Shown: positions 6,980-64,000, numbered from the stretch's first letter. The stretch is 64,000 nucleotides of DNA from Crocinitomicaceae bacterium (GCA_016719925.1 JADJYC010000004.1:56697-120696), one strand, 5' to 3'. Notes: generated from the letters alone by a model not told the origin. Numbers and translations: made by a program.

Positions 6980-8359
6980 AAAATACGTCTACTACGACTA
7001 TACCATAAGTTTATGTCCGGAGTGTTTAAAACGCATTGACGCTAAAATTGTATTTGAAAACAACAACGTTTACATGTTGAAGAGATGTCCGGAACATGGG
7101 AACTCCAAAGTTCTGATAGCTGATGACATTGAATACTACAAAAGCATCAGAAACTATAACAAAGCTTCCGAAACACCTTTTCGATTCAATACCAAGACAA
7201 ATTATGGATGTCCCTATGACTGTGGTCTTTGCCCTGACCACGAGCAACATTCATGTCTAAGTATAATTGAGATAACTGATCGCTGCAACCTGACCTGTCC
7301 AACTTGTTATGCAAACTCATCACCATCCTTTGGAAGACATAGAACTTTCGAAGAAGTAAAATCAATGTTAGACACGATCGTAGAAAATGAAAAAGAACCT
7401 GACGTTGTACAAATCAGTGGTGGTGAACCAACATTACACCCACAATTTTTGAAATACTTGATTATGCTAAAACCTTGCCGGTCAAACACCTGATGGTGAA
7501 TACAAACGGAATTGAAATCGCAAAAGACTTTGAATTTGCTAAACGGCTGAAAAATTATTCTCCCGACTTTGAAATTTATCTTCAATTCGATTCTTTCAAG
7601 GAAGAAAATCTGGTTTCACTCAGGGGAGCAAATCTAAAAAAAATAAGGGAAAAGGCAATCGAACATCTTAATCAACTAAATCTTTCTACAACTCTTGTAG
7701 TCACTTTACAAAAAGGTTTAAATGACAGTGAAATTGGAGAAATAGTTGATTATGCACTTAAACAAAAATGTGTTAGAGGCGTAACTTTTCAACCAATACA
7801 AGTTGCCGGGAGAACTGAAAATTTTAATCACGAAAATGAAAGGATTACACTCACCGAAGTCAGAAGAAAAATTCTGGAGCAAACCAACATATTTAATCAG
7901 GACGATTTAATTCCGGTACCATGTAATCCGGATTCACTGGTCATGGGATACGTATTAAAATTAGACGGAAAAAATATACCACTTACCAGATATATCAATC
8001 CGTCTGATCTGCTAGATAACAGCAAAAATACAATAGTCTACGAACAAGACGAAACATTGCATCAAAAGATGTTTGAAATTTTCAGCACCGGAACATCAAC
8101 CGATAAAGCTTCTTCAAAATTGCATAGTCTTCTTTGTTGTCTTCCTTCTGTTGAGGCGCCAAATCTTAGTTATGATAATTTGTTCCGTATTATCATCATG
8201 CAATTCATCGATGCCTACAATTTTGATGTAAGAGCAATTAAGAAATCCTGTGTTCACATTGTAAATAAGGACAATAAAATAATCCCCTTTGAAACAATGA
8301 ACATCTTTTACCGTGATGACAAAAAAGAATATTTAGAAAAACTGATAACAAAACATTAA
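6969..8359 (+). CDS. Radical SAM protein with an N-terminal Cys-rich (zinc-ribbon-like) domain, broken by a frameshift at the T5 run 7446-7450
   Basis: CPECLKRIDAKIV...CPEHG...YGCPYDCGLCPDHEQHSC precedes the radical-SAM cluster ITDRCNLTCPTCYA. The GGEPTLHPQF segment in frame 0 continues as EILDYAKTLPVKHLMVNTNGIEIAK in frame +2. A T6 at this site would give a continuous ~460-aa protein. Confidence 0.7.
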
Positions 8360-8361
8360 TT

Positions 8362-8544
8362 ATGGGTGGAATATTTTCTTTAATTATTATTATCTACATT
8401 ATTTGTCATATCCCGGCGATTATAGCACTAATCATGGGTCTGGTTGCATTAAAAAGCAATCCGGAATACGCAAAAAAACTTTTAATTTTTGCTGGCATTT
8501 ATTTCTTAATTGGAGGAGGAATCTGTGGAACAATATTGAGTTAA
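8362..8544 (+). CDS. Small hydrophobic membrane protein (60 aa)
   Basis: Two predicted TM helices. Located directly after the radical-SAM gene. Confidence 0.3.
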   Translation: MGGIFSLIIIIYIICHIPAIIALIMGLVALKSNPEYAKKLLIFAGIYFLIGGGICGTILS

Positions 8545-8593
8545 ATTAATTGAAAAATAAACCTGAATTAATATCTGTAACTCAGTAACTCAA

Positions 8594-9262
8594 ATGACCA
8601 AAGAATTCAACGCTACAAAAATCGGAGCAATATTTACGCTGGTTAGTTTCTTCAGCACATTTACATTTATTGTTCCAATGTTTTTTATAATTCCGGTTGC
8701 ATTGATGTTTGAGAACATTATTGGTCCTGCTCCCTATTCAAAAATTGGCACCACCGCTATCATTTTTCTTTCAATAGTCACTACGCTGGCTTGTCTTGTA
8801 CTTTTCGTTTCTACCTTTCGTTTGCGGCGGTCTGGTCAAGATCTGACTTCCGGTGCATTGATTTTCTTTTTTGTTGTAATAACATTCATTATTCATCCGC
8901 TGGGATTTTTTTTATACGTTTCAACTAACTGGAGAATGGCCAATGACGGACAATTTATATTTGCTATTTTTCAGCCGTTTGCTTTCACCAGTTTTGCCTA
9001 TTTCATTATTGGTGTGACTACTGATCTAATTCGAAACTTTGGATCAAATAATTTGACTCCACCAGTTCAGACTGAATCAATAACTCCAAAAATTCATGAC
9101 CAACAAAAAGAAAGCTCTGACAACGAAGAACTGATTACAGTTTATTTCAGCCATTACAGAACAAAATCTAATGAGGAACTTGAACATATTATTCAAAATA
9201 AAGGTTGGCAATCCGAAGCAAAGATTGCAGCACAGCGTACTTTAAATGAAAGAAAACAATAA
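8594..9262 (+). CDS. Hypothetical multi-pass membrane protein (222 aa)
   Basis: Four or five hydrophobic segments followed by a hydrophilic C-terminal tail. Confidence 0.4.
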   Translation: MTKEFNATKIGAIFTLVSFFSTFTFIVPMFFIIPVALMFENIIGPAPYSKIGTTAIIFLSIVTTLACLVLFVSTFRLRRSGQDLTSGALIFFFVVITFIIHPLGFFLYVSTNWRMANDGQFIFAIFQPFAFTSFAYFIIGVTTDLIRNFGSNNLTPPVQTESITPKIHDQQKESSDNEELITVYFSHYRTKSNEELEHIIQNKGWQSEAKIAAQRTLNERKQ

Positions 9263-9306
9263 ACTACGTGTTCAGATTCTAAACCCAATAAAGTAACACA
9301 TTCAAA

Positions 9307-9975
9307 ATGCCCAAAGCTATAATCATCGGCGCAACCGGCCTAATCGGTAAAGCCCTCATAAAAGAACTAACTTCCAATTCTGACTATACTGAAGTAGTAT
9401 TAATTGCCAGAAAAAAAATTGAAAACCTGCCGGCAAAATTCAGAGTGATTCAAATTGATTTTGATAAAATTGAAGAAATCAAAAATGAAATAACAGGAGA
9501 TGTTTTATTTTCTGTTCTGGGAACAACAATGAAAACGGCGGGCTCAAAAGAAGCGCAATACAAAATAGATTTTGATTATCAGTATAACGTTGCCAGAATT
9601 GCTTCAGAGAACGGAGTAAAAAATTTGGTTTTACTTTCTTCTGCCGGGGCAAATTCCAAATCATCTATTTTCTATTCACGCATGAAAGGTGAACTGGATG
9701 ATGCCGTAAAAAAATTAAACTTTAGTCACATTTCTATTATCAGACCTTCGATGCTCACCGGAAAAAGGAAAGAATTCAGACTGGGTGAAAAGATATTTAC
9801 ACCAGTTGCGTACATCTTAAATATCATTCCGTTTGCCAGAAAATATCGTCCGATAAAAGATGTCATTGTTGCTCAGGCAATGATTAATGCAGTCACAAAA
9901 AATCCAAATCAATATCAGATCTATGAACTGAATGAAGTGTTTAAACTGGCTGGTAAGCAGAATTCTTACAAGTAA
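9307..9975 (+). CDS. NAD(P)H-binding protein (atypical SDR / NmrA-like oxidoreductase)
   Basis: N-terminal Rossmann motif MPKAIIIGATGLIGKALIKEL and the overall 222-aa length fit this family. Confidence 0.7.
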   Translation: MPKAIIIGATGLIGKALIKELTSNSDYTEVVLIARKKIENLPAKFRVIQIDFDKIEEIKNEITGDVLFSVLGTTMKTAGSKEAQYKIDFDYQYNVARIASENGVKNLVLLSSAGANSKSSIFYSRMKGELDDAVKKLNFSHISIIRPSMLTGKRKEFRLGEKIFTPVAYILNIIPFARKYRPIKDVIVAQAMINAVTKNPNQYQIYELNEVFKLAGKQNSYK

Positions 9976-10190
9976 TTTTTTTGATTTATTTCACGCAAAG
10001 ACGCCAAGTTCGCAAAGCATTTTAGACATTCAACGTTTATAGTTAATGAGTTGATAAGTTCAAAAAAATTGACTCCAGACTAAAGACTCCAGACTAAAAC
10101 ACTCAAATACAAATGACGTATAACTTCAGCAGAAAATTGACTCAAGATTTTTTTCGAATTCTTAATTCAAAATAACTGAGCCTGTCGAAG

Positions 10191-11939
10191 TCACCACTTC
10201 ACAAAATTCACATTTTCCACGTTTGAATTATTCAGTGAACAGATGCGGTAATTTCCTGATGGTAATCTGGACACATCTATTTTGCCTGCATTATGAACCG
10301 TTCCGGTGATAACAATTTCACCAACTGCATTCAGAATTTTATAATCAAATAATCCGTTGTATGTAATGTTAAGATAAATCTGATCAATGCTCATTTCCGC
10401 TTTTAAACCGCCGCTTTGTGTAATTCCGGTATTGGAACCAACAGTAAAACTTTGTTTTGAACTGCATCCGATTGCATCCACAATTAAAACCTCATACGTA
10501 CCGGATGTAATATTATTCAGATCTTCTGTTCTTCCCATTTCCATTCCGTCTTTGGTCCAGTAATAACTGTATGGATAAGTTCCGCCGGCGGGTGTCAGAT
10601 TAATAGAACCAGATTGATTGTATGTTGATTCCTTTACATCTGCAGTTGCAGAAACTTTATTTACCACAACAAAAACAGATGCTTCATTGGAACATTGATT
10701 CTGTGAACCGGCATCATATGAACGCACGGTATAACTATTTACACCAACCGGAGGTGAAAACGGAACACCGTTCAGAACTCCTTTATCCCATGTATAATTT
10801 TCTGCACCTTGTCCATAAAGAATGGTTGATTCTCCTTCACAGATAATTCCGTTTGTTGTAGTTGCTTTCAAATTTCTGGACAAAACATTCAGTTCAACAC
10901 TGTATGTACATTCCCTGTTATCAGAACTTGTTACAGTGTAAGTTGTTCTTCCAACAGGCGGCGTAAAAGGAATGTTATTAGTCACACCATGATCCCAGCT
11001 CAGCGTTGAACGATAATTGGAAACAGCACTGAGTGTAAAAGTTTCTCCCTCACACAATGTTGTATTTCCGCTCAGTTTAACAATTGGATTTGTGCAGATA
11101 ATATCCGGAGAAAAATTTCCGCCGCCGGTTCTGATAATTACTTTTCCGTTTCCGTCATTTACTCCCTGTTCATGTTTTACCTGCGATGCTTTTTTAAAGG
11201 CAAAACTGCTTCCGCCTCCACCACCTGACCAGCAACCACCGCCGCCTCCGTAATATCCGCCACCACCACCGGTTCCGCATGTTCCGGCAGGGCCGCTTCC
11301 GCCAACACCTAATGTTCCGTCACCTGCTTTTTCATACCCTGACCATTTTCCTCCTACTCCTCCATTTTCCTGTGTTGCTCCTCTTCCTCTTGATTCATCA
11401 GCCTGAAGATGATTTGAAAATCCGTCTTGTCCAACAACATCACCACCATGTCCGCCATCATCACCACCGTCAGCATAATTATACGCTGCTCCGCCACCGC
11501 CACCGGCTACAAGAATTCTTCTTTCAAGTTCAACTCCGTCAATCCGGATATCCGTTGCTCCACCGCCTCCTCCACCGCTGTAAATGCCAGATGTATTTCC
11601 CTGATCCGCCTCCGTTAAAACCAGATGTTCCGCCAACACCGCTCGAACCATCACCTCCTTTTCCGCCAACAAAAATATAGAGTGTCTGACCCGGGTGAAC
11701 AGGAATTGTTGCCTGCACTCTTCCGCCTTTTCCTGGTGTGTACTCTTCATACTTTACACCGCTGTAATCATTCCAACCGCCACTGGCACCATATAAATCA
11801 ACCTGCAAAGAATACACACCATTAGGAACAACATAACGCTGATAATCTCCGGTGTATTCAAAGGTTTTGTTTTGGGCAAAAACCGGAATTAAAAGTGAAT
11901 AAAGATTCAGAATCAAAGTCAAAGAAAGATTTTTTTCAT
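10191..11939 (-). CDS. Glycine-rich secreted protein with tandem Ig-like modules and a T9SS C-terminal sorting domain, broken by two frameshifts
   Basis: N-terminal piece (ORF 11539..12066) contains signal-peptide-like LTLILNLYSLLIPVFAQ then ...FVGGKGGDGSSGVGGTSGFNGGGSG. The long ORF continues GGGGGGATDIRIDG...GGGGYYGGGGG, then three ~80-aa Cys-containing modules and a T9SS CTD-like end. A T7 run at 11930-11936 (A7 on the coding strand) and a TTT at ~11597 break the frame. Confidence 0.55.
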
Positions 11940-12086
11940 AGTACAGTAAATCATTACTACAGCTATATACAATCAGAAATGATTCAGGTTCATTTTTTTT
12001 ATTCCAATCTAACTTTGAAAAATTTTTGAGTTTTGTATAATCGGTCAGGGCTGACAAACTTGACATTTTATTTGGAAATATACTAT

Positions 12087-12122
12087 TTTGTACATATATT
12101 TGTACATAATAACGTACATATT
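12087..12122 (+). promoter_or_regulatory. Putative autoregulatory operator and promoter of the yefM-yoeB pair (three TGTACA half-sites)
   Basis: TTGTACATATATTTGTACATAATAACGTACATA lies immediately upstream of the antitoxin start. Short TGTACA palindromes are typical Phd/YefM operators. Confidence 0.4.
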
Positions 12123-12129
12123 TAGAGAT

Positions 12130-12363
12130 ATGATGACAACTTCCATTTCTGATTTCAGAAAAGACATTAAAAAGTATCTGGATAAGGTTTCAGAAAATTA
12201 CGAGACATTAATCATCAACAGAGGAAAGGATACCGGTGTTGTTATTATGTCTCTTGAGGAATATAATTCTATGTCCGCAACACAGCACGAATTGTCTTCA
12301 AAAAGAATGAAGAACGACTTGACTCTGCAATTTCCAAACTCAAAAAAGGGAAAAACTGAATAA
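12130..12363 (+). CDS. yefM: Type II antitoxin, Phd/YefM family
   Basis: MMTTSISDFRKDIKKYLDKVSENYETLIINRGKDTGVVIMSLEEYNSM is the canonical YefM fold sequence. The more likely start is the ATG at 12130 rather than the ORF-track start at 12088. Confidence 0.75.
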   Translation: MMTTSISDFRKDIKKYLDKVSENYETLIINRGKDTGVVIMSLEEYNSMSATQHELSSKRMKNDLTLQFPNSKKGKTE

Positions 12364-12378
12364 AAAACTTATCAGTTA

Positions 12379-12636
12379 ATGAAATACATTTTTGTTGATG
12401 AGTCTTGGGAAGATTATCTCTACTGGCAAAAGACGGATAAACAAATTCTAAAAAAAATAAATGAACTTCTCAAGGATGTTTCCCGCACACCTTTTGCCGG
12501 AATTGGAAAACCTGAACCATTAAAACACAAGTACAAAGGGTTCTGGTCAAGACGGATTGATTCAGAACATCGTCTGATCTATGCTTACCGTGAAGGTGAA
12601 ATTCTGATTGCAAAATGCAGGTTTCATTATGACTGA
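12379..12636 (+). CDS. yoeB: Type II toxin YoeB (Txe/YoeB family mRNA interferase)
   Basis: MKYIFVDESWEDYLYWQKTDKQILKKINELLKDVSRTPFAGIGKPEPLKHKYKGFWSRRIDSEHRLIY...HYD. It is 85 aa and starts 16 nt after yefM. Confidence 0.8.
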   Translation: MKYIFVDESWEDYLYWQKTDKQILKKINELLKDVSRTPFAGIGKPEPLKHKYKGFWSRRIDSEHRLIYAYREGEILIAKCRFHYD

Positions 12637-13419
12637 CTACTCAATCACAACCGTCATGGTATCCGTTGAAAACGCACCAAAATATCCGATTGCGTTTCCT
12701 TCCAGGTTACTGGTTGGATTTGCCGGAGCGGTGGAATTACTTTCATTGCTTGATAACGTGTACAGGTAAGTATAGTTTGCTTTATCAAGTGTAATGAGCT
12801 CTATAAAAACAGTATCCCCTTTATAAGCATCTGCACCAAAAAATGGTGCGTTGTATGATTGTCCGTTTATAAAATCATCATTGCCGATATAATAATAATC
12901 TGTTTGTTCTTCACTGTTAATCCAGATTCTCAATCTGTAATGATTAACTTCATTGACATTGTCTACTGAAAAATATTCTACCATGTGAGCAGTATCTTCA
13001 TTCACTGCAAATGGCGATGCATAATAAATAATTGAATCAATTTCAGGTTTTGCAAAAGAATGACACTGTGAAGTAATGATCTCTCCGCCAATATTTATAT
13101 ACAGGGAATAATCATTTTGTGGTAATACCTCAAAAGAAGGGTTTGTGTAGAATCCCGGAACATAAGGATCTTCCGGAAAAATATATTCATTTCCGTCCTT
13201 ATCAGTTACTCTTACATCTGCTCCTGAAATTTTATCGAAAGACTGATCAGTATAAACCGCTGATGTATAAGAAAGTTTAATCGAATTATTTCCCGGCCCA
13301 TCTTTCAAAACAGCTTCTACCACAATTCTTGATTCGGCTTCATTCAAATCCAGATCAATTACTTTTTCACAGGAAGTAAAAACCAGAACTGAAAATATGA
13401 AAACCCAAAAATTTTTCAA
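12637..13419 (-). CDS. DUF4249 family lipoprotein, paralog 2
   Basis: MKNFWVFIFSVLVFTSCEKVIDLDLNEAESRIVVEAVLKD... is the typical DUF4249 N-terminus found downstream of TonB-dependent receptor genes. It is a paralog of 13421..14227. Confidence 0.65.
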   Translation of the reverse strand: MKNFWVFIFSVLVFTSCEKVIDLDLNEAESRIVVEAVLKDGPGNNSIKLSYTSAVYTDQSFDKISGADVRVTDKDGNEYIFPEDPYVPGFYTNPSFEVLPQNDYSLYINIGGEIITSQCHSFAKPEIDSIIYYASPFAVNEDTAHMVEYFSVDNVNEVNHYRLRIWINSEEQTDYYYIGNDDFINGQSYNAPFFGADAYKGDTVFIELITLDKANYTYLYTLSSNESNSTAPANPTSNLEGNAIGYFGAFSTDTMTVVIE

Positions 13420-13420
13420 G

Positions 13421-14227
13421 CTATTGCGGCATTATAATTGTCATGGTATCTGTTGTGTACATTCCAAAATATCCGAGAGCACCGTTTTCCATATTAGAAA
13501 CCGGATTGGAAGGTGTTGGTGAAAAAGGATCACCACTGTCACTAGACGACAAAGTAGAGTAGTAAGTATAATTTGCTTTGTCAATAGAAAGCAATTCTAT
13601 AAAAACAGTATCCCCTTTTTCAACGGTAGTTGCAAAAAGGGGCTGCGTATAAACCTGACCGTTGAACAATTCATCATTGGTGACATAAAGATTTTCATCT
13701 GCAGCACCATTTACCCAGGCTCTCACCCGGTAATAATTTGTTGCAGTTTCATCATCTGTAAAATTGAAAAAAACCAGATACGTTGTGTCAGTTCCAAAAC
13801 CAAAAGAACCTAATTGTTCAATATAAGTAAGTGAATCAATCATGGGTTTATAAAAGGTCTGTGATGCAGATGTAAAAGTATCCGTTGCAGTATAAATTGT
13901 CAGGCTGTAATTTGTATTTGGTGCAGCTGCAAAAGTCGGGTGATTGTATTTTCCGGGCTCACCGGGTAATTCTCCCAGATAGGTATTTGTTCCGCTTCCA
14001 TCTGTGATAAAAACAGTTGCTCCGCTTATCTTTTCAAAATTACTCTCTTCATAAACAGAACCAGTTTTAGAAAGTATCACATAGTTTGATCCGGGCTCAT
14101 CTTTGAAAACAGCCTCAACTACTACTTTTCTGTCTGCGTCATTCAAAGGAATTTCGATGACCTTTTCACAAGAGTAAAATCCAAAACCAGACAATATAAT
14201 TCCCAAATTCAAAATTGCGTTTTTCAT
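13421..14227 (-). CDS. DUF4249 family lipoprotein, paralog 1
   Basis: MKNAILNLGIILSGFGFYSCEKVIEIPLNDADRKVVVEAVFKD... The architecture is conserved with the adjacent paralog. Confidence 0.65.
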   Translation of the reverse strand: MKNAILNLGIILSGFGFYSCEKVIEIPLNDADRKVVVEAVFKDEPGSNYVILSKTGSVYEESNFEKISGATVFITDGSGTNTYLGELPGEPGKYNHPTFAAAPNTNYSLTIYTATDTFTSASQTFYKPMIDSLTYIEQLGSFGFGTDTTYLVFFNFTDDETATNYYRVRAWVNGAADENLYVTNDELFNGQVYTQPLFATTVEKGDTVFIELLSIDKANYTYYSTLSSSDSGDPFSPTPSNPVSNMENGALGYFGMYTTDTMTIIMPQ

Positions 14228-14231
14228 TTTC

Positions 14232-51713: not shown

Positions 51714-51724
51714 ATTTCCTGAAA

Positions 51725-52377: not shown

Positions 52378-52938
52378 ATGTTGTATAATAAAATAAAAGA
52401 TACGTTGTTTATTAAAATAATTTATATTTCAATCATTGCTGTTTCTTGCAATAAATCGGATGATAATGGCAATTCTTCAGATGAATGTGCACCAAACAGT
52501 GGAAGTTTCAATGTGGATGTGAACGGGAATAATTATGATATGATTGTGAATTCTGAAACCCAATTCACTATTCTTTATAATTATTCAGGAACCAATGAAA
52601 CTGAATTTATTATTGATTCCAAAGATCAAAACGGAAATCCAATGAATATTGAGTTAGCTTTCCCTGGTCAGTTCAACAACGGCACAACTGCTTATTCGAA
52701 TGATGTATTAGATTTTGACTTTTTTACTATTGATGTTGATACATTTAATTTATATGTATCGTCTGTTACTTTTGAGGTTTCGGAGAGTGATTTCAATTCT
52801 CAGGATGGAACATATAACCCTGTAATTTCTTCTTTTACAGGTACAGCACATTCATTTCCATGGACAAATGGGCAACCGCCTCTAAATACGTTGAGTATAA
52901 GCGGGTCATTTTGCCTGAACGGAATTATATTGCCGTAA
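52378..52938 (+). CDS. Hypothetical lipoprotein, possibly the N-terminal part of the downstream T9SS-CTD ORF
   Basis: Lipobox IAVSC. The downstream ORF 52977..53627 has no signal peptide of its own. Confidence 0.35.
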   Translation: MLYNKIKDTLFIKIIYISIIAVSCNKSDDNGNSSDECAPNSGSFNVDVNGNNYDMIVNSETQFTILYNYSGTNETEFIIDSKDQNGNPMNIELAFPGQFNNGTTAYSNDVLDFDFFTIDVDTFNLYVSSVTFEVSESDFNSQDGTYNPVISSFTGTAHSFPWTNGQPPLNTLSISGSFCLNGIILP

Positions 52939-52976
52939 ATCTTTGGATACAGTTTTAACATCTCCGGTTTATCCGG

Positions 52977-53627
52977 ATGAGGACGAAATGGGTATACAAG
53001 TTTATGCAACAAAAAACATTTATCATGGATGAATTAGAACCTACGGTAGTGTATTTACAGAATCAACGAGTAGGTTGGAATACAAATGGAGTAGAATACA
53101 AAGCGCAGTATGAAGCTTCTTACGCAATTTTTTTGGGTGAAAACGTGAGTCCAAAAACTGATGTTGCACCTTATGAAATATGGAACAACGGCAGCATTTT
53201 TTGTATGGCTGAAACACACATAACGCTTTCCAAAGGTTTTCATGCCAAAGCGGGATCTGAATTTCACGCGCAAATTGGATATGTAGGCTATAGTCCATGC
53301 ACAGATGGTAAATCTTCCGAACAAGTAACTACTGTTGTAAATGACACTTATAAACCGGAAATCTCATCCGATGAAACTGTTATCGAAAGTGATAATAAAA
53401 ATTACATCATTGCTCCAAACCCAAGCATTGGAGAACAAAGTTTCCAGATTTTAAGTTCTAATAGTGAAACATTGACTATTAGACTTTTTGATTTATCTGG
53501 TAAACAAATTTACTGGGGCCGAATCCAAGCAAACACTAATTTATCTCCAGACCTACAATCAGGAGTTTATATTGTAATAATTGACAACGGAACATCAGAA
53601 CAAATTGAAAAACTTGTGATCCAATGA
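52977..53627 (+). CDS. GFHAK-domain protein with a T9SS C-terminal sorting domain
   Basis: VGWNTNGVEYKAQYEASYAIFLGENVSPKTDVAPYEIWNNGSIFCMAETHITLSKGFHAKAGSEFHA is paralogous to residues of ORF 51114 (YKAWYKSRYQIFIGNNVTPKTD...GFHAKPGSTFHA). It ends with the CTD ...GVYIVIIDNGTSEQIEKLVIQ. Confidence 0.45.
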   Translation: MRTKWVYKFMQQKTFIMDELEPTVVYLQNQRVGWNTNGVEYKAQYEASYAIFLGENVSPKTDVAPYEIWNNGSIFCMAETHITLSKGFHAKAGSEFHAQIGYVGYSPCTDGKSSEQVTTVVNDTYKPEISSDETVIESDNKNYIIAPNPSIGEQSFQILSSNSETLTIRLFDLSGKQIYWGRIQANTNLSPDLQSGVYIVIIDNGTSEQIEKLVIQ

Positions 53628-54846: not shown

Positions 54847-55010
54847 ATTCCTGATTCCGAAGATGAATTTTTTTTCGTTACGAGTAACATTGGATCATGG
54901 AAAGAAAAATGGAAGTGAGTTAAACAGTATATGCTTTAAATTTTCAAATTCTGGGTCAGTTATTATAAACTAAGAGTAATATGAATGAATCAAACATCAA
55001 TTAAATGGAT

Positions 55011-56059: not shown

Positions 56060-56063
56060 TGTT

Positions 56064-56250
56064 TAGGGCTAAGGGCAAAGGACTAAGGACAAAGGGATTC
56101 GTTTTGTTAGCTTAATGCTTGCCAATTATTTTTTAGTTGTTTTTTTGGAGAACTAAGGGCAGGGGGCTAAGGACTAAGGGGAACTTTTAATTTTAAAAAA
56201 CTTTTCCATTGACCTTTGCCCCCTGTCCTTAGCCCTTTGACCTATTTAGA
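56064..56250. repeat. Heptamer-repeat element: forward arrays (56064-56098, 56150-56188) and inverted array (56212-56245)
   Basis: GGGCTAAGGGCAAAGGACTAAGGACAAAGGG...AACTAAGGGCAGGGGGCTAAGGACTAAGGGG...CCTTTGCCCCCTGTCCTTAGCCCTTT. The first ~85 bp are homologous to 57018-57102. Confidence 0.7.
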
Positions 56251-57012
56251 TTTAAACTTATTAATAGCATTCACTGTAAATTCTGAAAGTACCAACTCAC
56301 CACTCATTCCCGCGCGCACTTTTAAAAGACTGTCCCAGTTCTCTGTTCCTTCCCAGAATATTTTTTTGAGTTTAGACATAGCTTCCGGATTTGACTCCGC
56401 TAATTTATTTGCCAACACATCTATTGCTTTATCCATTTCTTCAACTGTATCAAAAAGTTGTGTATAAAGTCCCTTTTCTCTTGCCCATTCTGCAGAATGA
56501 AATTCAGTTGCGTTGATGGTCATTTGTGACATGGCAGACAAACCAACTTTTCTTTGCACTGCTGGTCCAACTACAAACGGTCCGATGCCTACTGCCAATT
56601 CAGATAATTTTACTTCAGCACCTTTAGTTGCAAAACAATAATCTACTGATGATGCAAGTCCTACTCCTCCACCTACTGCTTTTCCCTGAACTCTTCCAAT
56701 AATTAATTTCGGAGATTTTCTGCAGGCATTAATCACGCTTGCAAATCCTGAAAAGAAAATTTTTCCGGTCTTCAGATCTTTAATTGAAATCAACTCATCA
56801 AAACTGGCTCCGGCACAAAATGCTTTATCACCTGCTGATTTTAATACAATCACTTTCACTTTACTCATTGCGCTGACATCGGTAATTGTCTTTGCCAGCT
56901 GCGCCAGAATTTTTCCCGGCAGTGAGTTACTTAAAGGATGACCAAACTCAATGGTTGCGATTCCTTTTTCGTTTACTTCTGATTTTACGTGACCTTGGTT
57001 GAGTGCGCTCAT
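56242..57012 (-). CDS. Enoyl-CoA hydratase/isomerase family protein (crotonase fold)
   Basis: ...VIVLKSAGDKAFCAGASFDEL... carries the oxyanion-hole motif. 256 aa. Confidence 0.8.
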   Translation of the reverse strand: MSALNQGHVKSEVNEKGIATIEFGHPLSNSLPGKILAQLAKTITDVSAMSKVKVIVLKSAGDKAFCAGASFDELISIKDLKTGKIFFSGFASVINACRKSPKLIIGRVQGKAVGGGVGLASSVDYCFATKGAEVKLSELAVGIGPFVVGPAVQRKVGLSAMSQMTINATEFHSAEWAREKGLYTQLFDTVEEMDKAIDVLANKLAESNPEAMSKLKKIFWEGTENWDSLLKVRAGMSGELVLSEFTVNAINKFKSK

Positions 57013-57017
57013 ATTTT

Positions 57018-57102
57018 TTAAGGGCTAAGGGCAGAGGGCTAAGGACAAAGGGATTGACTTTGATGGCTTAACACTTGCCGAATATTTCTTTAATTGTTTT
57101 TT
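57018..57102. repeat. Heptamer-repeat element (homolog of 56064-56148)
   Basis: GGGCTAAGGGCAGAGGGCTAAGGACAAAGGGATTGACTTTGATGGCTTAACACTTGCCGAATATTTCTTTAATTGTTTTTTAG. Confidence 0.7.
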
Positions 57103-57503
57103 AGTTCAAGTTTTGAAATCATTGACTTTATCATTTTCTCAACTTGTAAAATTTGATTTTTTAGACTTGTTATATCATTCTCATTAACATAATTTAGTCT
57201 TACACAAATTTCCAGTTGAGTATTTAGCTCACATATAGATCCATAAGAAATTCTTAGAAATTGAATGTAACTTCCAAGATATTTTCTACCCCAACCTTCT
57301 GCTATATTTGAAGGAACAGAAACTGCTGCCCGACGGATTTGATTTGTGATACCAAACTTTTCATCTGAAGGGAAATCCTTAGAAACTTCATAAACATGAA
57401 CAACCAAATCCATCGCCTTCTGCCAAACAATTAAATCACGATACGAATTTATTTTTCCGTATTCTACTGTTCCCTCTTCAAATATCCAATTCTCTAATTC
57501 CAT
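57090..57503 (-). CDS. Four-helix-bundle protein (TIGR02436-like, 23S rRNA intervening-sequence protein family)
   Basis: ...SYRDLIVWQKAMDLVVHVYEVSKDFPSDEKFGITNQIRRAAVSVPSNIAEGWGR... is the family signature. It is flanked by heptamer arrays on both sides. Confidence 0.7.
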   Translation of the reverse strand: MELENWIFEEGTVEYGKINSYRDLIVWQKAMDLVVHVYEVSKDFPSDEKFGITNQIRRAAVSVPSNIAEGWGRKYLGSYIQFLRISYGSICELNTQLEICVRLNYVNENDITSLKNQILQVEKMIKSMISKLELKNN

Positions 57504-57524
57504 TTCCGTATTATAAATTAATTA

Positions 57525-57570
57525 CAACCCCTTAGTCCTCTGTCCTTAGCCCTTTGCCCTAACTCTGATT
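57525..57570. repeat. Heptamer array (reverse orientation)
   Basis: CCCCTTAGTCCTCTGTCCTTAGCCCTTTGCCCTAA. Confidence 0.65.
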
Positions 57571-59607
57571 TAGTTTTTTTACCATAGTTAAAATTGTTGC
57601 AATAGCAACCGTCTCCCCAGTCTCATCATACACATCTACTAAAAACTTTACGATGCCTTTTGCAATGTCTGCTTCATTTCTTTTTTCCTGATCTACTTTT
57701 TCTTTTACTGTAAATCTCACGCCAATTGTTGCTCCGGGATAAACAGGTTTTGTAAAGCGCGCTTCATCTATTCCATAATTCAAAAGTACCGGCCCTTTTT
57801 TAGGATCAACAAATAAACCTGCTGCTTTTGAAAGAATAAAATAACCGTGCGCAACTCGTCTTTCAAAAATAGTTCCGTCCAGTGAAGTGGCATCCATGTG
57901 TGCGTAAAAATTATCTCCGCTTACATTTGCAAAATTGACTATGTCTGCATCACTTACGGTGTGTTTGTGAGTGAAAACGGTTTCACCAATTTCCAATTCT
58001 TCAAAATGTTTTCTGAAGACATGTGGAACTGCTTCCGGCAGATCTGCGCCTACCTGAAACTGTTCTGTGATTTTTGTAATTGTTTGCGGATGTCCTTGTA
58101 TGGCGGTGCGCTGTAAATAATGCATCACGCCTCTTTTTCCTCCCATCTCTTCTCCCCCACCAGCACGGCCAGGACCACCATGCGTAAGCATTGGCATAGG
58201 CGAACCGTGTCCTGTACTTTCATCTGCACAACGTCTGTTCAATACATGAATTCTGCCATGTGATGTAGCTGCTCCCAAAACATATTCTTTTGCAATTTCA
58301 TCATCCGCTGTAATGATTGAAGACACCAAAGATCCTTTACCCATTTTGGCAATTTCAATTGCATCTTCTAAATTTTTATACGGCATGATGGTTGACACCG
58401 GGCCAAAACATTCAATGTTGTGTACACCTTGATTTTTAAACGGATCATCATTCCTGAAAACAATCGTTGGAAAAAATGCACCTTTATTTTTATCTGCGCT
58501 CAGCACATCAAAATTATCCATGTCACCAATCACAATTTTCTGCTCTTTCATCAACAACTCAACATTGTGACGAACGCGTTCAACTTGTAATTTTGTAGCA
58601 AGTGATCCCATTCTTACATTGGCATCTGCCGGATCTCCGATTGTGTTTTTTGCCAGACGTGATGCAAGAGCTTTTTGCACATCATCGATTAAGTTTTCAG
58701 GAACAACAATTCTTCTGACGGAAGTACATTTTTGTCCTGCCTTTACGGTAATTTCTCTCTGAACTTCTTTAATGAAAATATCAAATTCCGGTGTGCCCGG
58801 CACAGCGTCTTTACCAAGAATTGCAGCATTTAATGAATCTGCTTCCAGGTTAAATGAAACAGAATTATCTACTATGTTGGGTAAACTTTTTAATTTTTTT
58901 CCGGTTGATGCGGATCCTGTAAATGTTACAACATCATCCTGAGAAACGTGATCTAAAATTCCTCTTCCCAAACCGCAAACTAACTGAAGAGATCCTTCAG
59001 GAATAATTCCGGAAGCCACTATGTCTCTCACCATTTCTTCAGTCAGAAAACAAGTAAATTCAGATGGTTTAACAATTGCCGGTACGCCTGCAAAAAAGTT
59101 CACCGCAATTTTTTCAAGCATTCCCCAAATTGGAAAATTAAATGCGTTGATGTGTATAGCAACTCCTTGTTTCGGTACCATAATGTGGTGACCGATAAAA
59201 GACCCCCCTTTGGAAAGAGGAATAGCAGTACCATCTACATAATAAGGCAAATCCGGAAACTGTCTTCTTAATGAAGCATTGGCAAATAAATTGCCGCAAC
59301 CTCCTTCAATATCAATCCATGAATCTAATCTTGTTGCACCTGTCCATGCACTCACCTCATAATACTTCTTTTTATTTTTCATTAAGAAGAGAGCGAGTTC
59401 TTTCAGCATCAAACCGCGCTGCTGAAACGTCATTTTACGCAATGCTTTTCCTCCGGTTGATTTTGCGTAATTCATCATTGCGGCGTAATCCAATCCGGCT
59501 GAAGAGCAGGTTCCGATTTTTTCACCGGTAATAGCGTTGAATAATTCGGTTTCTATTCCGTCACCGCTGATCCATTTTCCAAGTGCATAATTTTGGTAGA
59601 CTTTCAT
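57559..59607 (-). CDS. paaZ: PaaZ-like bifunctional protein: N-terminal aldehyde dehydrogenase domain fused to a C-terminal MaoC-like (R)-hydratase domain
   Basis: ALDH-like N-terminus ...[30 protein letters not shown].... The C-terminus ...[22 protein letters not shown]...[13 protein letters not shown]... is a MaoC hot-dog fold. 682 aa. Confidence 0.7.
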
Positions 59608-59635
59608 TTGTTGTCAGGTTTGAGGGATAAAGTTA

Positions 59636-59860
59636 TGTTATTTTTTAGGACTAAGGGCTAAGGACTAAGGGCTAAGGGCTATTGACTTCGGACTTAGGGC
59701 TGAATGGTGAGGACTTAGGCAAATGAAAAATTTGTTTTGGATAATGATCCTTCTGAGATATAATTTATTCTCGAAACTCATTCCTTGAGCAAAAAACCTT
59801 GGCTAATTCAACTATAAATCCCTTGTCCTCTGCCCTTAGCCCTTTGTCCTATAATAATCT
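59636..59860. repeat. Heptamer-array inverted pair (forward 59636-59712, reverse 59815-59860)
   Basis: AGGACTAAGGGCTAAGGACTAAGGGCTAAGGGCTATTGACTTCGGACTTAGGGCTGA ... ATCCCTTGTCCTCTGCCCTTAGCCCTTTGTCCTAT. Confidence 0.7.
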
Positions 59861-59925
59861 AATCGGACTATTTTTGTTTTTGATTAAGAAACCCCTTATC
59901 TTTGCCCCAGTTCTTAATTTTATTT

Positions 59926-60032
59926 ACTTATAAAGAAAGGTGGAGGGACCGGCCCTGCGAAACCTTGGCAACCTGTTCCTTTCAGAGAATAAGGTGCCAA
60001 TTCCTTCCTGTTTATTATCGGGATAATATAAG
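59926..60032 (+). ncRNA. SAM-I (S-box) riboswitch in the 5' leader of the metH N-terminal module
   Basis: CTTATAAAGAAAGGTGGAGGGACCGGCCCTGCGAAACCTTGGCAACC...AAGGTGCCAATTCC...GGGATAATATAAG matches the SAM-I consensus (GGUGGAGGGAC.GGCCC..GAAACC..GGCAACC...AAGGUGC.AAUUCC) with a closing P1 CTTATA/TATAAG. Confidence 0.75.
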
Positions 60033-60070
60033 CGTTAATCAGTTTTCCGGTCTCGCCTCTGTAGTTGTTT

Positions 60071-61099
60071 ATGAACGATATCAGAGAAATATTAAAACAT
60101 CGCATTTTGGTGCTGGACGGCGCTATGGGCACTATGATTCAGCGGTATAAACTGGAAGAAGCAGATTTCAGAAAAGGCTGGTTTGAAAATCATCCAAAAC
60201 CGCTGAAAGGAAACAATGATTTATTGGTTTTGACCAGACCGGATATCATCAAAGAAATTCATCGTGAATATTTAGAAGCCGGTGCTGACATTCTGGAAAC
60301 AAACACATTCAGCGGAACTACTATTGCGCAAGCTGATTATGGCCTGGAAAAATATGCATACGATATTAATTTTCACGGTGCAAAAATTGCCAAAGAAGTT
60401 TGTCAAGAATTCACAAAAAAAAATCCGGACAAATTAAGATTTGTTGCCGGATCAATCGGACCGACCAACGTGACACTTTCTATTTCTCCAAATGTCAATG
60501 ATCCGGGATTCAGAAGTACAACTTTTGATAAAATGGTTGTGGCTTATGAAGAACAGGTGAAAGGATTGATCGATGGAGGAGCTGATTTGCTTTTAATAGA
60601 AACAATTTTTGATACACTCAATGCAAAGGCAGCACTTTTTGCAACTCAAAATGTACAGGAAAAACTGGGAACAAATCTTCCCATCATGATTTCAGGAACA
60701 ATAACGGATGCCAGCGGACGAACGCTATCTGGTCAAACTGCTGAAGCATTTTTAGTTTCAGTTCAGCATGCAGATTTACTTTCTGTTGGATTGAATTGTG
60801 CTTTAGGCGCAAGTACGCTGAGACCATATCTTCAGGTATTGAAAAAAAATGCACCGTTCGCTATTTCAGCGCATCCAAATGCCGGACTTCCAAATGAAAT
60901 GGGTCAATATGATGAGACTCCGGAAATGATGGCCGCACAAATTAAAACATTCCTGGATGAAGGTTTGGTAAATATTGTTGGAGGATGCTGCGGAACAACA
61001 CCGGCGCATATTAAGGCGATTGCGGAGCTGGTTGAAAAGAGGGCAAAGGGCAGAGGACAAAGGGCAGAGGACAAAGGAAATGTAGTAACGGGTTCTTGA
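60071..61099 (+). CDS. metH: Homocysteine S-methyltransferase module of cobalamin-dependent methionine synthase (MetH N-terminal domain as a separate ORF)
   Basis: [24 protein letters not shown]...[21 protein letters not shown] are Hcy-binding domain motifs. The last ~20 codons ([18 protein letters not shown]) are encoded by a heptamer repeat array. Confidence 0.8.
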
Positions 61100-61212
61100 A
61101 AAAAATAAATACTAATTTGAAAATTCAACTGGAAAAATAATGCAACGTCTTGAAAATAAAAATAACTCATACGGACAAAACCCTCTGTCCTTAGCCCTTA
61201 GACCTCTGTCCT
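61037..61212. repeat. Heptamer-array inverted pair (forward 61037-61082, reverse 61176-61212)
   Basis: AGGGCAAAGGGCAGAGGACAAAGGGCAGAGGACAAAGG ... CCCTCTGTCCTTAGCCCTTAGACCTCTGTCC. The forward arm overlaps the 3' end of the metH N-terminal ORF. Confidence 0.7.
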
Positions 61213-61217
61213 AAAAA

Positions 61218-61959
61218 ATGGCATCACATTTCGGTAAAATATTAGGCGGTGGTTTAGGCTGGGCTTTCGGTGGTCCGCTTGGTGCTTTAATTGGCGTAGC
61301 TATTGGCGGAATTCTTGACGTTGGAAATTCTGCGGGACAAACACGAAGAACTATTATTGGCAATCAACCTCATCAGACACAAGCAGGTGATTTTGGTGCA
61401 GCATTGATTGCGCTTTCTGCGGTGGTCATGAAAGCAGATGGAAAAATTCTGAAATCAGAAATTCAGTTTGTACGTGATTTTTTTACCAGACAATTTGGTG
61501 TTCCCCGCACCAATGAATACATCAAATTACTTCAGGAAATTTTAAAACAGGATATTCCGGTAAGAGAAATTTGTTTTCAGATTCGTCACAACATGGAGCA
61601 TCCGCTGCGACTTGAATTGCTTCGTTATCTTTTGAAGTTTCAAAAGCCGATGGTCATGTTGACAAATCAGAAATTCATATTCTGCATCAACTTTCGGACT
61701 ACTTGGGAATATCAGAAAAGATTTTCTCTCGCTGAAAAACATGTATTATAAAGATGTCGATTCAGCCTATAAAATTTTAGAAATAAACACAAAGGCAACT
61801 GACGAAGAAGTAAAAAAAGCATACCGAAAAATGGCAGTCAAATATCACCCTGATAAATTAAGTTCATTAGGGCCGGAATTTGAAAAAAACGGAAAAGAAA
61901 AATTTCAGAAAGTACAGGAGGCGTATGATAAGATTAAGAAAGAACGTGGATTTAAATGA
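61218..61959 (+). CDS. DjlA-like co-chaperone: Gly-rich TM segment plus TerB-like domain plus C-terminal J-domain (HPD), with two frameshifts (T4 61630-61633, A4 61716-61719)
   Basis: MASHFGKILGGGLGWAFGGPLGALIGVAIGGIL. TerB-like ...ALIALSAVVMKADGKILKSEIQFVRDFF.... Corrected reading ...RYLFEVSKADGHVDKSEIHILHQLSDYLGISEKDFLSLKNMYYKD.... J-domain DSAYKILEINTKATDEEVKKAYRKMAVKYHPDK. Confidence 0.55.
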
Positions 61960-62288
61960 GGACAGAGGGCAGAGGGCAAAAGGCAAAGGGCAGAGGGCAG
62001 AGGCAAAGGGCAGAGGAAAAAGCCAAAAGGTTTTAAAAAAAATGATCGAACTGAAATACTAAAATAAATAGATTGAAAATACAACAACCTTTAATATTAT
62101 AATTAACCAAAACATTAGTTAAATACTGATATGGCCAAAACAAAAACCCTTTATCCTTGGTCCTCTGTCCCTAGCCCTCAAAAAATTGAAAGAATATTTA
62201 AGAAACAGAACTAGTAAAAAAATTGACGAGTGCCGGGGAATCAAACCAAATCCCTTTGTCCTTAGCCCTCTGTCCTTAGCCCTATAAA
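61957..62288. repeat. Heptamer arrays (forward 61957-62022; reverse 62148-62182 and 62240-62288)
   Basis: GAGGACAGAGGGCAGAGGGCAAAAGGCAAAGGGCAGAGGGCAGAGGCAAAGGGCAGAGG ... CCCTTTATCCTTGGTCCTCTGTCCCTAGCCCTC ... CCCTTTGTCCTTAGCCCTCTGTCCTTAGCCCTAT immediately precedes the ATG at 62290. Confidence 0.7.
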
Positions 62289-62289
62289 A

Positions 62290-64000
62290 ATGAACATACA
62301 TCCTGACTACCCCGGAAAATACCAATACAAATGGAACCAATTACCCAACATGAAGTTGAGCGGACTGGAACCTTTGGAACTAACACCTGAATCCAATTTT
62401 GTAAATGTTGGTGAGCGGACCAATGTTGCTGGCTCAGCAAAATTTTTGAAACACATCAAAGAAGGAGAGTTTGAAGCTGCATTGCAAATTGCACGTGATC
62501 AGGTTGAAGGCGGTGCGCAAATCATTGACGTGAACATGGATGATGGTTTGATAGAAGGAAAAGAAGCGATGGTGAAATTTTTAAACCTCATTGCATCAGA
62601 ACCGGACATTGCGCGTGTACCCATCATGATAGATTCATCCAAATGGGAAATTATTGAAGAAGGATTGAAATGTGTTCAGGGAAAATGCGTGGTAAATTCA
62701 ATCTCATTAAAAGAAGGAGAAGAAAATTCATTCATCAGGCAAAAAAATAAAACAATACGGCGCTGCGGTAATAGTGATGGCGTTTGATGAAAACGGTCAG
62801 GCTGATACCTATGAAAAAAGAATTCAGATGTGTGAACGTTCATACCGGATTCTGGTTGACAAAGTAAAATTTCCGCCACAGGATATCATTTTTGATCCAA
62901 ACGTTTTTCCGGTTGCAACAGGTATGGAAGAACATAAATTGAACGCACTTGATTTTTTCAGAGCAACAAGATGGATCAGGGAAAATTTACCCGGTGCACA
63001 TGTGAGCGGAGGAATTTCAAACGTCTCCTTTTCATTCAGGGGAAATAATCCCGTGCGTGAAGCTATGCACTCTGCGTTTTTATATCACGCTATTGAAAAC
63101 GGAATGGATATGGGAATTGTAAACCCAACCATGCTGGAGGTATATGATGAGATTCCAAAAGAATTGCTGGAGCGTGTTGAAGACGTTTTATTAAACACAA
63201 GAGAAGATGCAACCGACAGGTTACTGACATTTGCAGAATCATTTGTTGGCGGCGCAAAAGAAAAGAAAGCAGAGCTTGAATGGAGAAAAGAAAATTTACA
63301 GGACCGTATCACCTATTCTTTAGTTAAGGGAATTACTGAGTTCATTGATCAGGATGTGGAAGAAGCACGATTGTCTGTCAAACAACCTATCGAAGTAATT
63401 GAAGGACATCTGATGAACGGAATGAATGTAGTGGGAGATTTATTCGGATCGGGGGAAAAATGTTTTTACCACAGGTTGTAAAATCTGCCCGCGTTATGAA
63501 AAAGGCAGTTGCTTATTTATTACCATACATTGAAGCATCCAAAACTGAAACAAAAGCCAAAGGAAAAGTGTTGATGGCCACCGTAAAAGGGGATGTGCAC
63601 GACATCGGAAAAAATATTGTAGGCGTTGTTTTAGGCTGCAATAATTATGAGATTATTGATTTGGGCGTGATGGTTCCGGCTGAAAAAATTCTGGAAGTTG
63701 CCAAAAAAGAAAAAGTTGATGTGATTGGTTTGAGTGGTTTAATTACACCTTCATTGGATGAAATGGTACACGTTGCAAAAGAAATGGAACGTGAGGGATT
63801 TACCATTCCTCTTTTGATTGGAGGAGCCACAACTTCTAAAGTTCACACCGCTGTAAAAATAGAGCAGAATTACAAAAAGGGACAAACCGTTTACGTACTG
63901 GATGCCTCACGGTCAGTAACTGTTGTTTCAAGTTTGTTATCTGATGACAAAGAAAAATTCATCAGAGAAGTTCAGGAAGATTTTTCACGCGTGAGAGAAA
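62290..64000 (+). CDS. metH: Cobalamin-dependent methionine synthase, pterin-binding plus B12-binding modules (3' end outside the window), with two frameshifts (A7 62741-62747, A5 63456-63460)
   Basis: ...[30 protein letters not shown]...IIDVNMD... is the pterin domain. ...[15 protein letters not shown]... follows in the next frame. ...[12 protein letters not shown], then [26 protein letters not shown]...[11 protein letters not shown] (B12 DxHxxG) in a third frame. Confidence 0.8.

Follow-up and report, generated by a model that had tools for sequence, protein, structure and literature searches.

The broken genes of the window, that is the whole stretch of 64,000 nucleotides analysed here, are very probably consensus errors of the Crocinitomicaceae MAG, stemming probably from error-prone long reads that were partly corrected. 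An assembler or polisher would miscount the bases of single-base runs, usually dropping one; a miscount inside a gene would shift its reading frame, and gene callers would then output a truncated protein or split the gene into two or three pieces. The sequencing platform and the polishing history are presumed ones, and the length of the contig (320 kb) is compatible with a long-read origin.

The window proteins are MBK9191331-83 (locus tags IPM77_), encoded on an NCBI contig of 320,367 bp. The reference for comparison is a set of seven short contigs of GCA_020054605.1, ending at repeats, which cover 51.6 kb of the window with 99.4-99.9% identity. A second reference, an ENA contig with a SPAdes-type name (L093), extends over a further, overlapping part. 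The “true” length of a run is its length in the independent same-species assembly. The other assemblies represent a population that differs a little from that of the window (about 0.1-0.2% SNPs). The SNPs, which appear real and selected, and a SNP-dense tract at 41960-42426 identify the window as a distinct strain at the sequence level, and individual sites may reflect strain-specific mutation because the other assemblies come from that slightly different population. The lesions, with the window state given before the true one, are the following:

714-718, plus strand: A5, true A6; hypothetical gene of 172 aa (324-841) broken, contig L086 versus window.
2358-2362, plus strand: A5, true A6; gene of a CAP-domain protein (778 aa; 838-3172; Pfam CAP), first break.
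2949, plus strand: G, true GG; CAP-domain protein, second break.
7446-7450, plus strand: T5, true T6; radical SAM gene broken (463 aa when intact).
11599-11601, minus strand: C3, true C2 (extra base); Gly-rich T9SS gene broken (582 aa when intact).
11930-11936, minus strand: T7, true T8; Gly-rich T9SS gene, directly after the ATG.
12300-12304, plus strand: A5, true A6; YefM antitoxin (82 aa when intact).
12351-12355, plus strand: A5, true A6; YefM antitoxin, second lesion.
28463, minus strand: A, true AA, adjoining T4; C-terminus of a SIS-domain gene altered (192 aa when intact).
32866-32869, plus strand: A4, true A3 (extra base), also covered by L093; DUF5684 gene broken (215 aa when intact).
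33637-33799, no strand assigned: twelve deletion events, each of between 1 and 10 nt, all within the last copy of an intergenic 156-nt tandem repeat.
34067, minus strand: T, true TT, flanking A6 at 34061-34066; DUF1704/MATCAP gene broken (414 aa when intact).
36584-36585, minus strand: 5 nt (ACCCC) missing between these bases; gene of a repeat protein of ~1040 aa with a T9SS tail broken.
39631-39639, plus strand: A9, true A8 (extra base); DUF2200 gene (116 aa when intact).
39647-39651, plus strand: TCAAGAA versus TCGAAA, one extra base and one mismatch; DUF2200 gene, second lesion.
41007-41012, minus strand: T6, true T7; cobA (251 aa when intact).
41046-41048, minus strand: C3, true C4; cobA.
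41961-41963, minus strand: in-frame TAA, GAA in the other assembly and GAG in a sister species; sulfite reductase (687 aa when intact) divided into parts of 515 and 171 codons.
51098-51103, plus strand: T6, true T7; gene of a T9SS-tailed protein broken (955 aa when intact).
55590-55593, minus strand: T4, true T5; apbC/mrp broken (349 aa when intact).
61630-61633, plus strand: T4, true T5; djlA-like gene (247 aa when intact).
61716-61719, plus strand: A4, true A5; djlA-like gene.
62723-62726, plus strand: A4, true A5; metH.
62741-62747, plus strand: A7, true A8; metH.
63451-63460, plus strand: G5A5 block in metH, outside the same-species contigs; frame change placed at 63454-63457 by orthologues.

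An earlier note had listed 14 definite frameshift sites from the window alone, and a lesion was found at all 14, displaced by 0-10 nt. Some of its details changed. The A9 of the DUF2200 gene, given as 39621-39629, lies at 39631-39639 and is accompanied by the second lesion at 39647-39651. In the DUF1704 gene the A6 run spans 34061-34066 rather than 34062-34067, and the missing base is the T at 34067. A lesion expected near 36590 in the repeat protein is the 5-nt ACCCC deletion at 36584/5. The metH shift, assigned to A5 at 63456-63460, is there, although probably as two extra bases: all 100 homologues containing the motif at 63451-63460 read GDLFG-x-GK-MFLPQ, from which two extra bases in the G5A5 block are most likely and one missing base is less likely. 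The suspected ORF 2418..3172 is the C-terminal part of the CAP-domain protein, which carries two lesions, and the second break at 2949 accounts for it. The ORF 52378..53627, also suspected, was rejected as a frameshift: it comprises two distinct genes, of 186 and 207 aa, which are the same in the other assembly, with no indel. Seven lesions were absent from that list (714-718, 12300-12304, 12351-12355, 28463, 62723-62726, 39647-51 and the stop codon at 41961-41963).

The split genes are recognizable within the window, where consecutive parts of one Pfam profile are matched by neighbouring ORFs in different frames. The eight cases are Radical_SAM (profile positions 1-70 then 62-165 across adjacent ORFs), ALK_LTK_GRD (4-73 then 77-240), MATCAP/DUF1704 (1-296 then 296-363), TP_methylase (1-134 then 150-211), ParA/NUBPL (1-59 then 62-245), Pterin_bind (1-108 then 111-244), B12-binding_2 (2-53 then 52-73) and, weakly, DUF5684 (2-22 then 22-78). 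In other assemblies the radical SAM, Gly-rich T9SS, CAP, YefM, SIS, DUF5684, DUF1704, DUF2200, CobA, sulfite reductase, T9SS-tailed, ApbC and DjlA proteins are intact, at the lengths listed above. Restoring A8 on the coding strand of the Gly-rich gene (11930-11936) restores the signal peptide MKKNLSLTLILNLYSLLIPVFAQ, and the DUF5684 protein with one A taken out has an exact copy in two other assemblies. Frame-breaking indels relative to the same-species contigs were found at all 22 covered sites, the contigs always having the in-frame length and every gene intact, which supports the earlier attribution of the shifts to sequencing error and not to real pseudogenisation. GCA_020054605.1, L093 and the sister species are free of all 22 lesions, and the sister-species contigs (84-88% identity) likewise hold the genes in a single frame.

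The converse reading, that the window has the right sequence and the error lies in the short-read assemblies or the repairs, could draw on the shortness of the GCA_020054605.1 contigs and their ends at repeats. It is hardly conceivable: the proteins of the short contigs are full-length, match their homologues in length and complete the Pfam profiles (DUF1704 has 414 aa, as do its homologues), two unrelated assemblies are identical base for base wherever the window carries an indel, and the sister species agree on the frame. An exceedingly improbable alternative is that programmed ribosomal frameshifting or transcriptional slippage rescues the genes in vivo. Transcriptional slippage can arise at A7-A9 tracts; nevertheless, most of the sites are short runs, no conserved frameshift was found among the orthologues, and these, as the same-species contigs, encode all the proteins in one frame.

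The discrepancies follow the pattern of miscounted runs. Outside the intergenic repeat cluster there are 22 isolated single-base differences, mostly in homopolymers, of which 17 are bases missing from the window and five are extra (P = 0.017), in line with the earlier description of mostly under-called homopolymers. The rate of run-length mismatch per run is 0.08%, 0.15%, 0.14% and 0.37% for true lengths 1-4, then 1.8%, 3.9%, 4.4% and 14% for lengths 5-8, and the single run of length 10 is mismatched (1/1). Runs with a true length of at least 5 make up 5.2% of the sequence and hold 14 of the 21 single-base coding indels (P = 8e-14). The earlier account is to be amended for five extra bases, one 5-nt deletion and one nonsense substitution. 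Errors are found in non-coding DNA too, the twelve deletion events at 33637-33799 falling in one intergenic repeat copy where the C of CTTCG is dropped repeatedly and two other assemblies concur with each other and contradict the window.

In assemblies and MAGs from Nanopore R9.4.1 reads, indels in homopolymers are documented to remain, above all at low coverage, and to fragment gene calls; the IDEEL test quantifies the frameshifted or truncated calls that result (Sereika et al. 2022, PMC9262707). The window resembles such assemblies by its single-base indels concentrated in homopolymers at a rate rising with run length, its genes in fragments whose correct lengths are recoverable from short-read data, and its long (320 kb) metagenome-bin contig. 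It differs from them by the 5-nt deletion, the complex change at TTCGAA, the nonsense substitution and the uneven spread of lesions. A lesion-free gap of 16.1 kb (12355-28463; P = 0.03 under uniformity) requires that an error model assume uneven polishing or coverage. Miscalls of 454 pyrosequencing or Ion Torrent are also alike, with under- and over-calls that scale with run length; metagenome contigs of 320 kb are rare for these platforms, which the sequence alone does not distinguish from others. Three lesions are poorly accounted for by a simple homopolymer miscount: the loss of ACCCC at 36584, the TCGAA/TCAAGAA difference at 39647-51 and the replacement of GAA by TAA at 41963. The last one is a substitution adjoining a T4 run, and may be either a consensus error or a real mutation.

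The substitutions between assemblies behave differently from the indels. Coding substitutions comprise 61 synonymous, 27 nonsynonymous and one nonsense change, while each of the 22 coding indels disrupts its frame, no length being divisible by three (15 further indels are non-coding); purifying selection acts on the substitutions and no such filter acts on the indels. About 27% of the window genes are hit by lesions. Among them the YefM antitoxin is broken next to an intact YoeB toxin, a combination that is biologically implausible. Selection on the SNPs, the frame-breaking nature of the coding indels and the YefM-YoeB pair together argue for consensus error. They bear directly on the possibility of genuine and very recent pseudogenisation, for example in a mismatch-repair-deficient mutator lineage or at the start of genome decay, by slipped-strand homopolymer indels. 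Real slippage likewise rises with run length, the window is a distinct strain with real, selected SNPs and a SNP-dense tract, and the nonsense codon and 5-nt deletion are unlike classic homopolymer miscalls. Decaying or host-restricted genomes also have many frameshifted genes, often in A/T runs as here. Yet such inactivation is very unlikely. Within 51.6 kb it would have to yield 22 indels that break a frame, compared with about 60 SNPs when the dense tract is set aside, and to strike over a quarter of the genes under strong purifying selection on substitutions. The deletions within a single repeat copy, several losing the same C of CTTCG, would require parallel mutations. In contrast to decaying genomes, the window has a population 99.4-99.9% identical in which the genes are intact, no IS insertions or large deletions are present in it, and the gene fragments are undegraded, with 92-100% identity to orthologues on either side of each shift.

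Slipped-strand contingency loci, known from Neisseria, Haemophilus and Campylobacter, are poly-G/C or poly-A tracts within the 5' coding part or the promoter of genes for surface proteins. That some long tracts of the window are real phase-variable loci, each assembly having caught one state, is unlikely as well; the tracts in question are the poly-C at 47697 and three A tracts, namely the A8 that follows the ATG of the Gly-rich T9SS gene, the A8 of metH and the A8/9 of the DUF2200 gene. Most true runs (2-6 nt) are too short for contingency loci, and the affected genes are mostly housekeeping or metabolic ones (metH, cobA, apbC). The association of a long 5' tract, a secreted-protein gene and an on/off frame was found only at 47697-47702; A8 at 11930 likewise follows an ATG. 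Two features are found at this place:

47697-47702, plus strand: C6 in the window versus C10 (L087) and C11 (L085); poly-C just after the ATG at 47681.
47710-47713, plus strand: T4, true T3 (extra base), 8 nt past the poly-C tract.

The tract sits upstream of a 343-aa gene, the first in a cluster of six that share one orientation; three of the six code for a T9SS sorting tail. The ATG at 47681 reads into a good signal peptide and on into the 343-aa ORF only when the number of C is a multiple of three (6, 9 or 12), and in the orthologue L094 the ATG is immediately followed by such a signal peptide. The position in the lead gene of the cluster, the length varying between assemblies and this frame dependence liken the tract to contingency loci. 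It departs from them by its absence from both orthologues found (L094, 55%; L095, 44%), by lengths known at the contig level only and by the company of 20 or more other lesions in short runs of housekeeping genes. The two short-read contigs, L087 and L085, both break at the tract; C tracts of at least 10 are miscalled on all platforms, however, and the L085 sequence past the tract resembles degraded read ends. The earlier note had allowed for phase variation at a few long tracts; the poly-C, absent from its list, is the best candidate in the window, while C6, C10 and C11 could all be miscalls.

Extrapolated to the whole genome, the state of the window would mean about a quarter of the genes broken in a strain that is only about 0.1-0.2% from an intact one.

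The broken genes of the window are an artefact of the deposited assembly and no biological feature. Their cause, as the earlier note had proposed, is with high confidence sequencing or consensus error, chiefly under-called homopolymers: the genes are intact elsewhere, missing bases outnumber extra ones in the window by 17:5 (P = 0.017), and the indels show no trace of selection.

The window has a base composition of 36-39% G+C. Exact protein look-up identified its proteins as MBK9191331-MBK9191383 (locus tags IPM77_07370-07600), encoded on a contig of 320,367 bp in the NCBI metagenome-assembled genome (MAG) 'Crocinitomicaceae bacterium'. Its nearest named relatives are MAGs of Crocinitomicaceae and isolates of Crocinitomix/Paracrocinitomix. 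GTDB species genomes were set aside as a base-level reference, the best relative in the sulfite reductase scan being just 60% identical. Contigs of the same organism were reached through exact window proteins that recur on a second contig. Seven contigs of GCA_020054605.1 (JAHZTR01...), of 4.8-11 kb each, are 99.4-99.9% identical to the window and cover 51.6 kb of it in total; L092, which is one of them, and the ENA contig L093 come from unrelated projects. The comparison included sister-species contigs (L081, L082, L090 and L091) of 84-88% nucleotide identity. Local gene content varies between the species of the window and that of L082. The latter contig, compared with window 6191-9262, is without lgt, the radical SAM gene and the 222-aa gene, and carries a different small gene where the window has the yefM-yoeB pair.

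Same-organism contigs, with the window span covered and the source
L086, window 1-8541, GCA_020054605.1
L088, window 8528-15756, GCA_020054605.1
L089, window 24351-29200, GCA_020054605.1
L092, window 31960-37574, GCA_020054605.1
L093, window 32385-33781, SPAdes-named ENA contig
L085, window 37436-47778, GCA_020054605.1
L087, window 47581-54453, GCA_020054605.1
L083, window 54252-63004, GCA_020054605.1

Every gene broken in the window is one full-length ORF in all same-organism and sister-species contigs compared. The intact products are the radical SAM protein (463 aa), Gly-rich T9SS protein (582 aa), CAP-domain protein (778 aa), YefM (82 aa), SIS protein (192 aa), DUF5684 (215 aa), DUF1704 (414 aa), repeat protein (about 1037 aa), DUF2200 (116 aa), CobA (251 aa), sulfite reductase (687 aa), T9SS-tailed protein (955 aa), ApbC (349 aa) and DjlA (247 aa). 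All stop-to-stop segments and same-strand neighbour pairs in different frames were listed, and the fragments were scanned against Pfam. In every claimed gene with a junction-spanning domain the upstream fragment matches the start of the profile and the downstream fragment the remainder: Radical_SAM 1-70 / 62-165, ALK_LTK_GRD 4-73 / 77-240, MATCAP (DUF1704) 1-296 / 296-363, TP_methylase 1-134 / 150-211 (a gap consistent with two shifts 39 nt apart), ParA/NUBPL 1-59 / 62-245, Pterin_bind 1-108 / 111-244, B12-binding_2 2-53 / 52-73 and, as a weak match, DUF5684 2-22 / 22-78. The DjlA-like gene shows TerB, then DnaJ. Such consecutive profile parts on neighbouring fragments mean that the frameshifts are truly present in the window sequence. 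The majority of the remaining genes are intact. A short duplicate of the YifB C-terminal Mg_chelatase_C region beside the ORF6N gene (24483-24644; a 50-aa gene in L089) is a fragment without frameshift.

The count of frame-breaking lesions, set at fourteen or more by the earlier note, reaches 23 indels and one nonsense codon, and about 16 of the about 59 genes of the window are affected.

Discrepancies between the window and the independent assembly, whose run length is taken as true (one base missing from the window unless stated; "new" marks lesions missed in the earlier note)
714-718, A5, true A6, new
2358-2362, A5, true A6, CAP-domain protein
2949, G, true GG, CAP-domain protein
7446-7450, T5, true T6
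11599-11601, C3, true C2, one base extra
11930-11936, T7, true T8
12300-12304, A5, true A6, new
12351-12355, A5, true A6, new
28463, A, true AA, new
32866-32869, A4, true A3, one base extra, DUF5684
34067, T, true TT, adjoining A6, DUF1704
36584/5, 5 nt (ACCCC) missing, repeat protein
39631-39639, A9, true A8, one base extra
39647-39651, complex change TCGAA/TCAAGAA, one base extra, DUF2200, new
41007-41012, T6, true T7
41046-41048, C3, true C4
41961-41963, in-frame TAA (other assembly GAA, a sister species GAG) interrupting the 687-aa sulfite reductase, new
47710-47713, T4, true T3, one base extra
51098-51103, T6, true T7
55590-55593, T4, true T5
61630-61633, T4, true T5
61716-61719, A4, true A5
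61981-62000, window longer by 20 nt in a G-rich repeat of GGGCAGA/GGGCAAA type, 22 nt downstream of djlA; copy number differs between the assemblies
62723-62726, A4, true A5, new
62741-62747, A7, true A8

All 14 sites regarded as definite in the earlier note hold lesions, as judged from contigs of the other assembly and, for metH 63456, from orthologues; one position was 10 nt off and one lesion lies in the neighbouring dinucleotide. The latter is that of DUF1704, where an A6-to-A7 miscount is ruled out and the missing base is the adjacent T (TT read as T). Neither version of the repaired DUF1704 protein has an exact match in the protein collection, because of other SNPs. Removal of one A at 32866-9 turns DUF5684 into a 215-aa protein with an exact match there, and the MAG's deposited product MBK9191359.1 (window 32685-33330) has just 150 of these residues. 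MBK9191377.1 (window 53624-54283) has 211 aa versus 219 aa called in the other assembly. The miscounts are mostly missing bases, as claimed, with extra bases at three of these sites, or four with metH 63456-63460. That site lies past the end of L083, and orthologues put the shift at 63454-63457. All 100 motif-containing MetH homologues (100/100) read GDLFG-x-GK-MFLPQ, one residue fewer than the window with a single added A. The single missing A is probably wrong, and by this comparison the G5A5 block of the window probably has two bases too many. The coding region for methionine synthase (60065-64000) comes in two separate parts, a homocysteine S-methyltransferase gene at 60065-61099 and a pterin/B12 body from 62290, which are separated by the djlA-like gene; the layout is identical in the other assembly.

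As for the cases given only as probable, the repeat protein (~36590) does carry a lesion, which is a 5-nt deletion and not a single-base shift. ORF 2418..3172 turned out to form the tail of the CAP-domain protein, which has two lesions. The suspected frameshifted gene at 52378..53627 is in L087 a pair of genes (186 and 207 aa), indel-free.

A rival to consensus miscounts, in a MAG probably built from partly corrected long reads, is real, recent pseudogenisation. The run-length mismatch rate between assemblies is 0.08%, 0.15%, 0.14% and 0.37% for true lengths of 1, 2, 3 and 4, and 1.8%, 3.9%, 4.4% and 14% for lengths of 5, 6, 7 and 8 (1/1 for 10). Runs of at least five, 5.2% of the sequence, hold 14 of the 21 single-base coding indels (P = 8e-14). 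Real slippage would likewise track run length, so that this dependence is not decisive by itself. Coding substitutions between the assemblies (61 synonymous, 27 nonsynonymous, 1 nonsense; P = 7e-18 versus 25% synonymous) reflect strong purifying selection on real strain differences, whereas each of the 22 coding indels breaks the frame, with no length divisible by three. A shared population history could not give both selected substitutions and unselected indels; the indels never met selection.

Discrepancies of the same type occur also in non-coding DNA, as a cluster of deletions in a single tandem-repeat copy. The intergenic repeat at 33330-33820 (1377-1883 of L092), between DUF5684 and DUF1704, comprises about 2.4 copies of a 156-nt unit with GACTTC sub-repeats, and twelve deletion events at 33637-33799 are confined to its last copy in the window. 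The C of CTTCG is repeatedly missing there, with L092 and L093 concurring against the window, and real mutation would require parallel deletions of that same base. A motif-specific, methylation-type error at TTCGA/TCGA was rejected: the assemblies agree at 54 of 61 TTCGA sites, and CTTCG deletions are found only in the one repeat copy and at the DUF2200 site. Another intergenic repeat, of ~126 nt, occurs in two 85% identical copies (39846-39968 and 39995-40120) between DUF2200 and the siroheme synthase N-terminal-domain gene.

Real breaks would moreover need the simultaneous loss of MetH, CobA, sulfite reductase and ApbC, and would leave the YefM antitoxin without its C-terminal part beside an intact YoeB toxin. 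Extrapolated genome-wide, this would amount to about a quarter of all genes disrupted in a strain that differs by 0.1-0.2% from one in which they are intact. No decay is seen in the fragments, both sides of each shift being 92-100% identical to orthologues.

For Nanopore R9.4.1 assemblies and MAGs, above all at low coverage, homopolymer indels that split gene calls are documented as the error that remains (PMC9262707). An activated-sludge long-read MAG study describes a pipeline of Racon, two medaka rounds and one Illumina Racon round, and lists Crocinitomicaceae MAGs, for which one table row gives values of about 5-10x that appear to be coverages (PMC8012365). By its accession and locus-tag patterns the present MAG may belong to that series; a full-text search for its accessions and locus tag gave no hit, and its contig was matched to none of the Crocinitomicaceae MAGs listed there.

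Error of this kind leaves some features unexplained. The 16-kb stretch 12355-28463 is free of frame-breaking lesions (P = 0.03 under uniform placement), with similar homopolymer content and genes that are intact by orthologue comparison; uneven polishing or coverage along the contig is the likely, putative reason. Simple miscounting of a run does not fit three lesions, namely the loss of ACCCC, the change TCGAA/TCAAGAA and the TAA codon. This codon adjoins a T4 run and stands at the edge of an SNP-dense tract of ~470 nt (41960-42426; 33 SNPs, 24 synonymous and 8 nonsynonymous) that, from its SNP pattern, looks like a recombined allele. The window-specific codon neighbouring the TAA is TCG (Ser), which matches the sister-species state and shows that the allele is real. 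The stop codon itself may be either genuine or erroneous.

The poly-C tract lies at 47697-47702, in a region (window 47681-47713) that corresponds to 101-136 of L087 and to the end of L085. Its length is C6 in the window, C10 in L087 and C11 in L085. Both contigs end at the tract, and the L085 tail past it resembles degraded read ends. The tract lies 16 nt downstream of an ATG at 47681. With a length of 3n, translation from the ATG gives MNLVFTPP(P)HFALSRCKSIILGILFLTSFSVFSQNPTV..., which is a good signal peptide fused to a 343-aa ORF. This ORF opens a cluster (47.7-54.3 kb) of six genes in the same direction, and a T9SS sorting tail (Por_Secre_tail) is present in three. A tract of C10 or C11 brings the ATG frame to an early stop, and only lengths divisible by three join ATG and gene. 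The first ATG, GTG or TTG of the gene frame in L087 is a GTG from which the product would lack the signal peptide. In the 55% identical orthologue L094, an ATG is directly followed by a signal peptide and then QNPT(I/V)I, with no poly-C; L094 is one of the two distant orthologues that a metagenome scan found, and the tract is in neither. The layout makes the gene a candidate slipped-strand contingency locus, and is equally that of a tract miscounted on every platform. It seems improbable that the tract is a genuine on/off switch or, separately, that the TAA is a real strain-specific loss of assimilatory sulfate reduction. If true, the former would place a contingency locus in a free-living member of the Flavobacteriales, uncultured and from an environmental community.

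The main value of these results is a warning about the MAG, in which about 16 of about 59 window genes are mis-encoded, and about its truncated proteins, such as MBK9191359.1, which are already in databases. The read-free test is reusable: the assembly is set against near-identical contigs of other assemblies, and selection on substitutions is then compared with that on indels. As artefacts, the broken genes have little biological interest. Their practical effect is real, since inferences from this MAG on auxotrophies (Met, Cys, siroheme), missing Fe-S assembly and pseudogene loads would be misleading.
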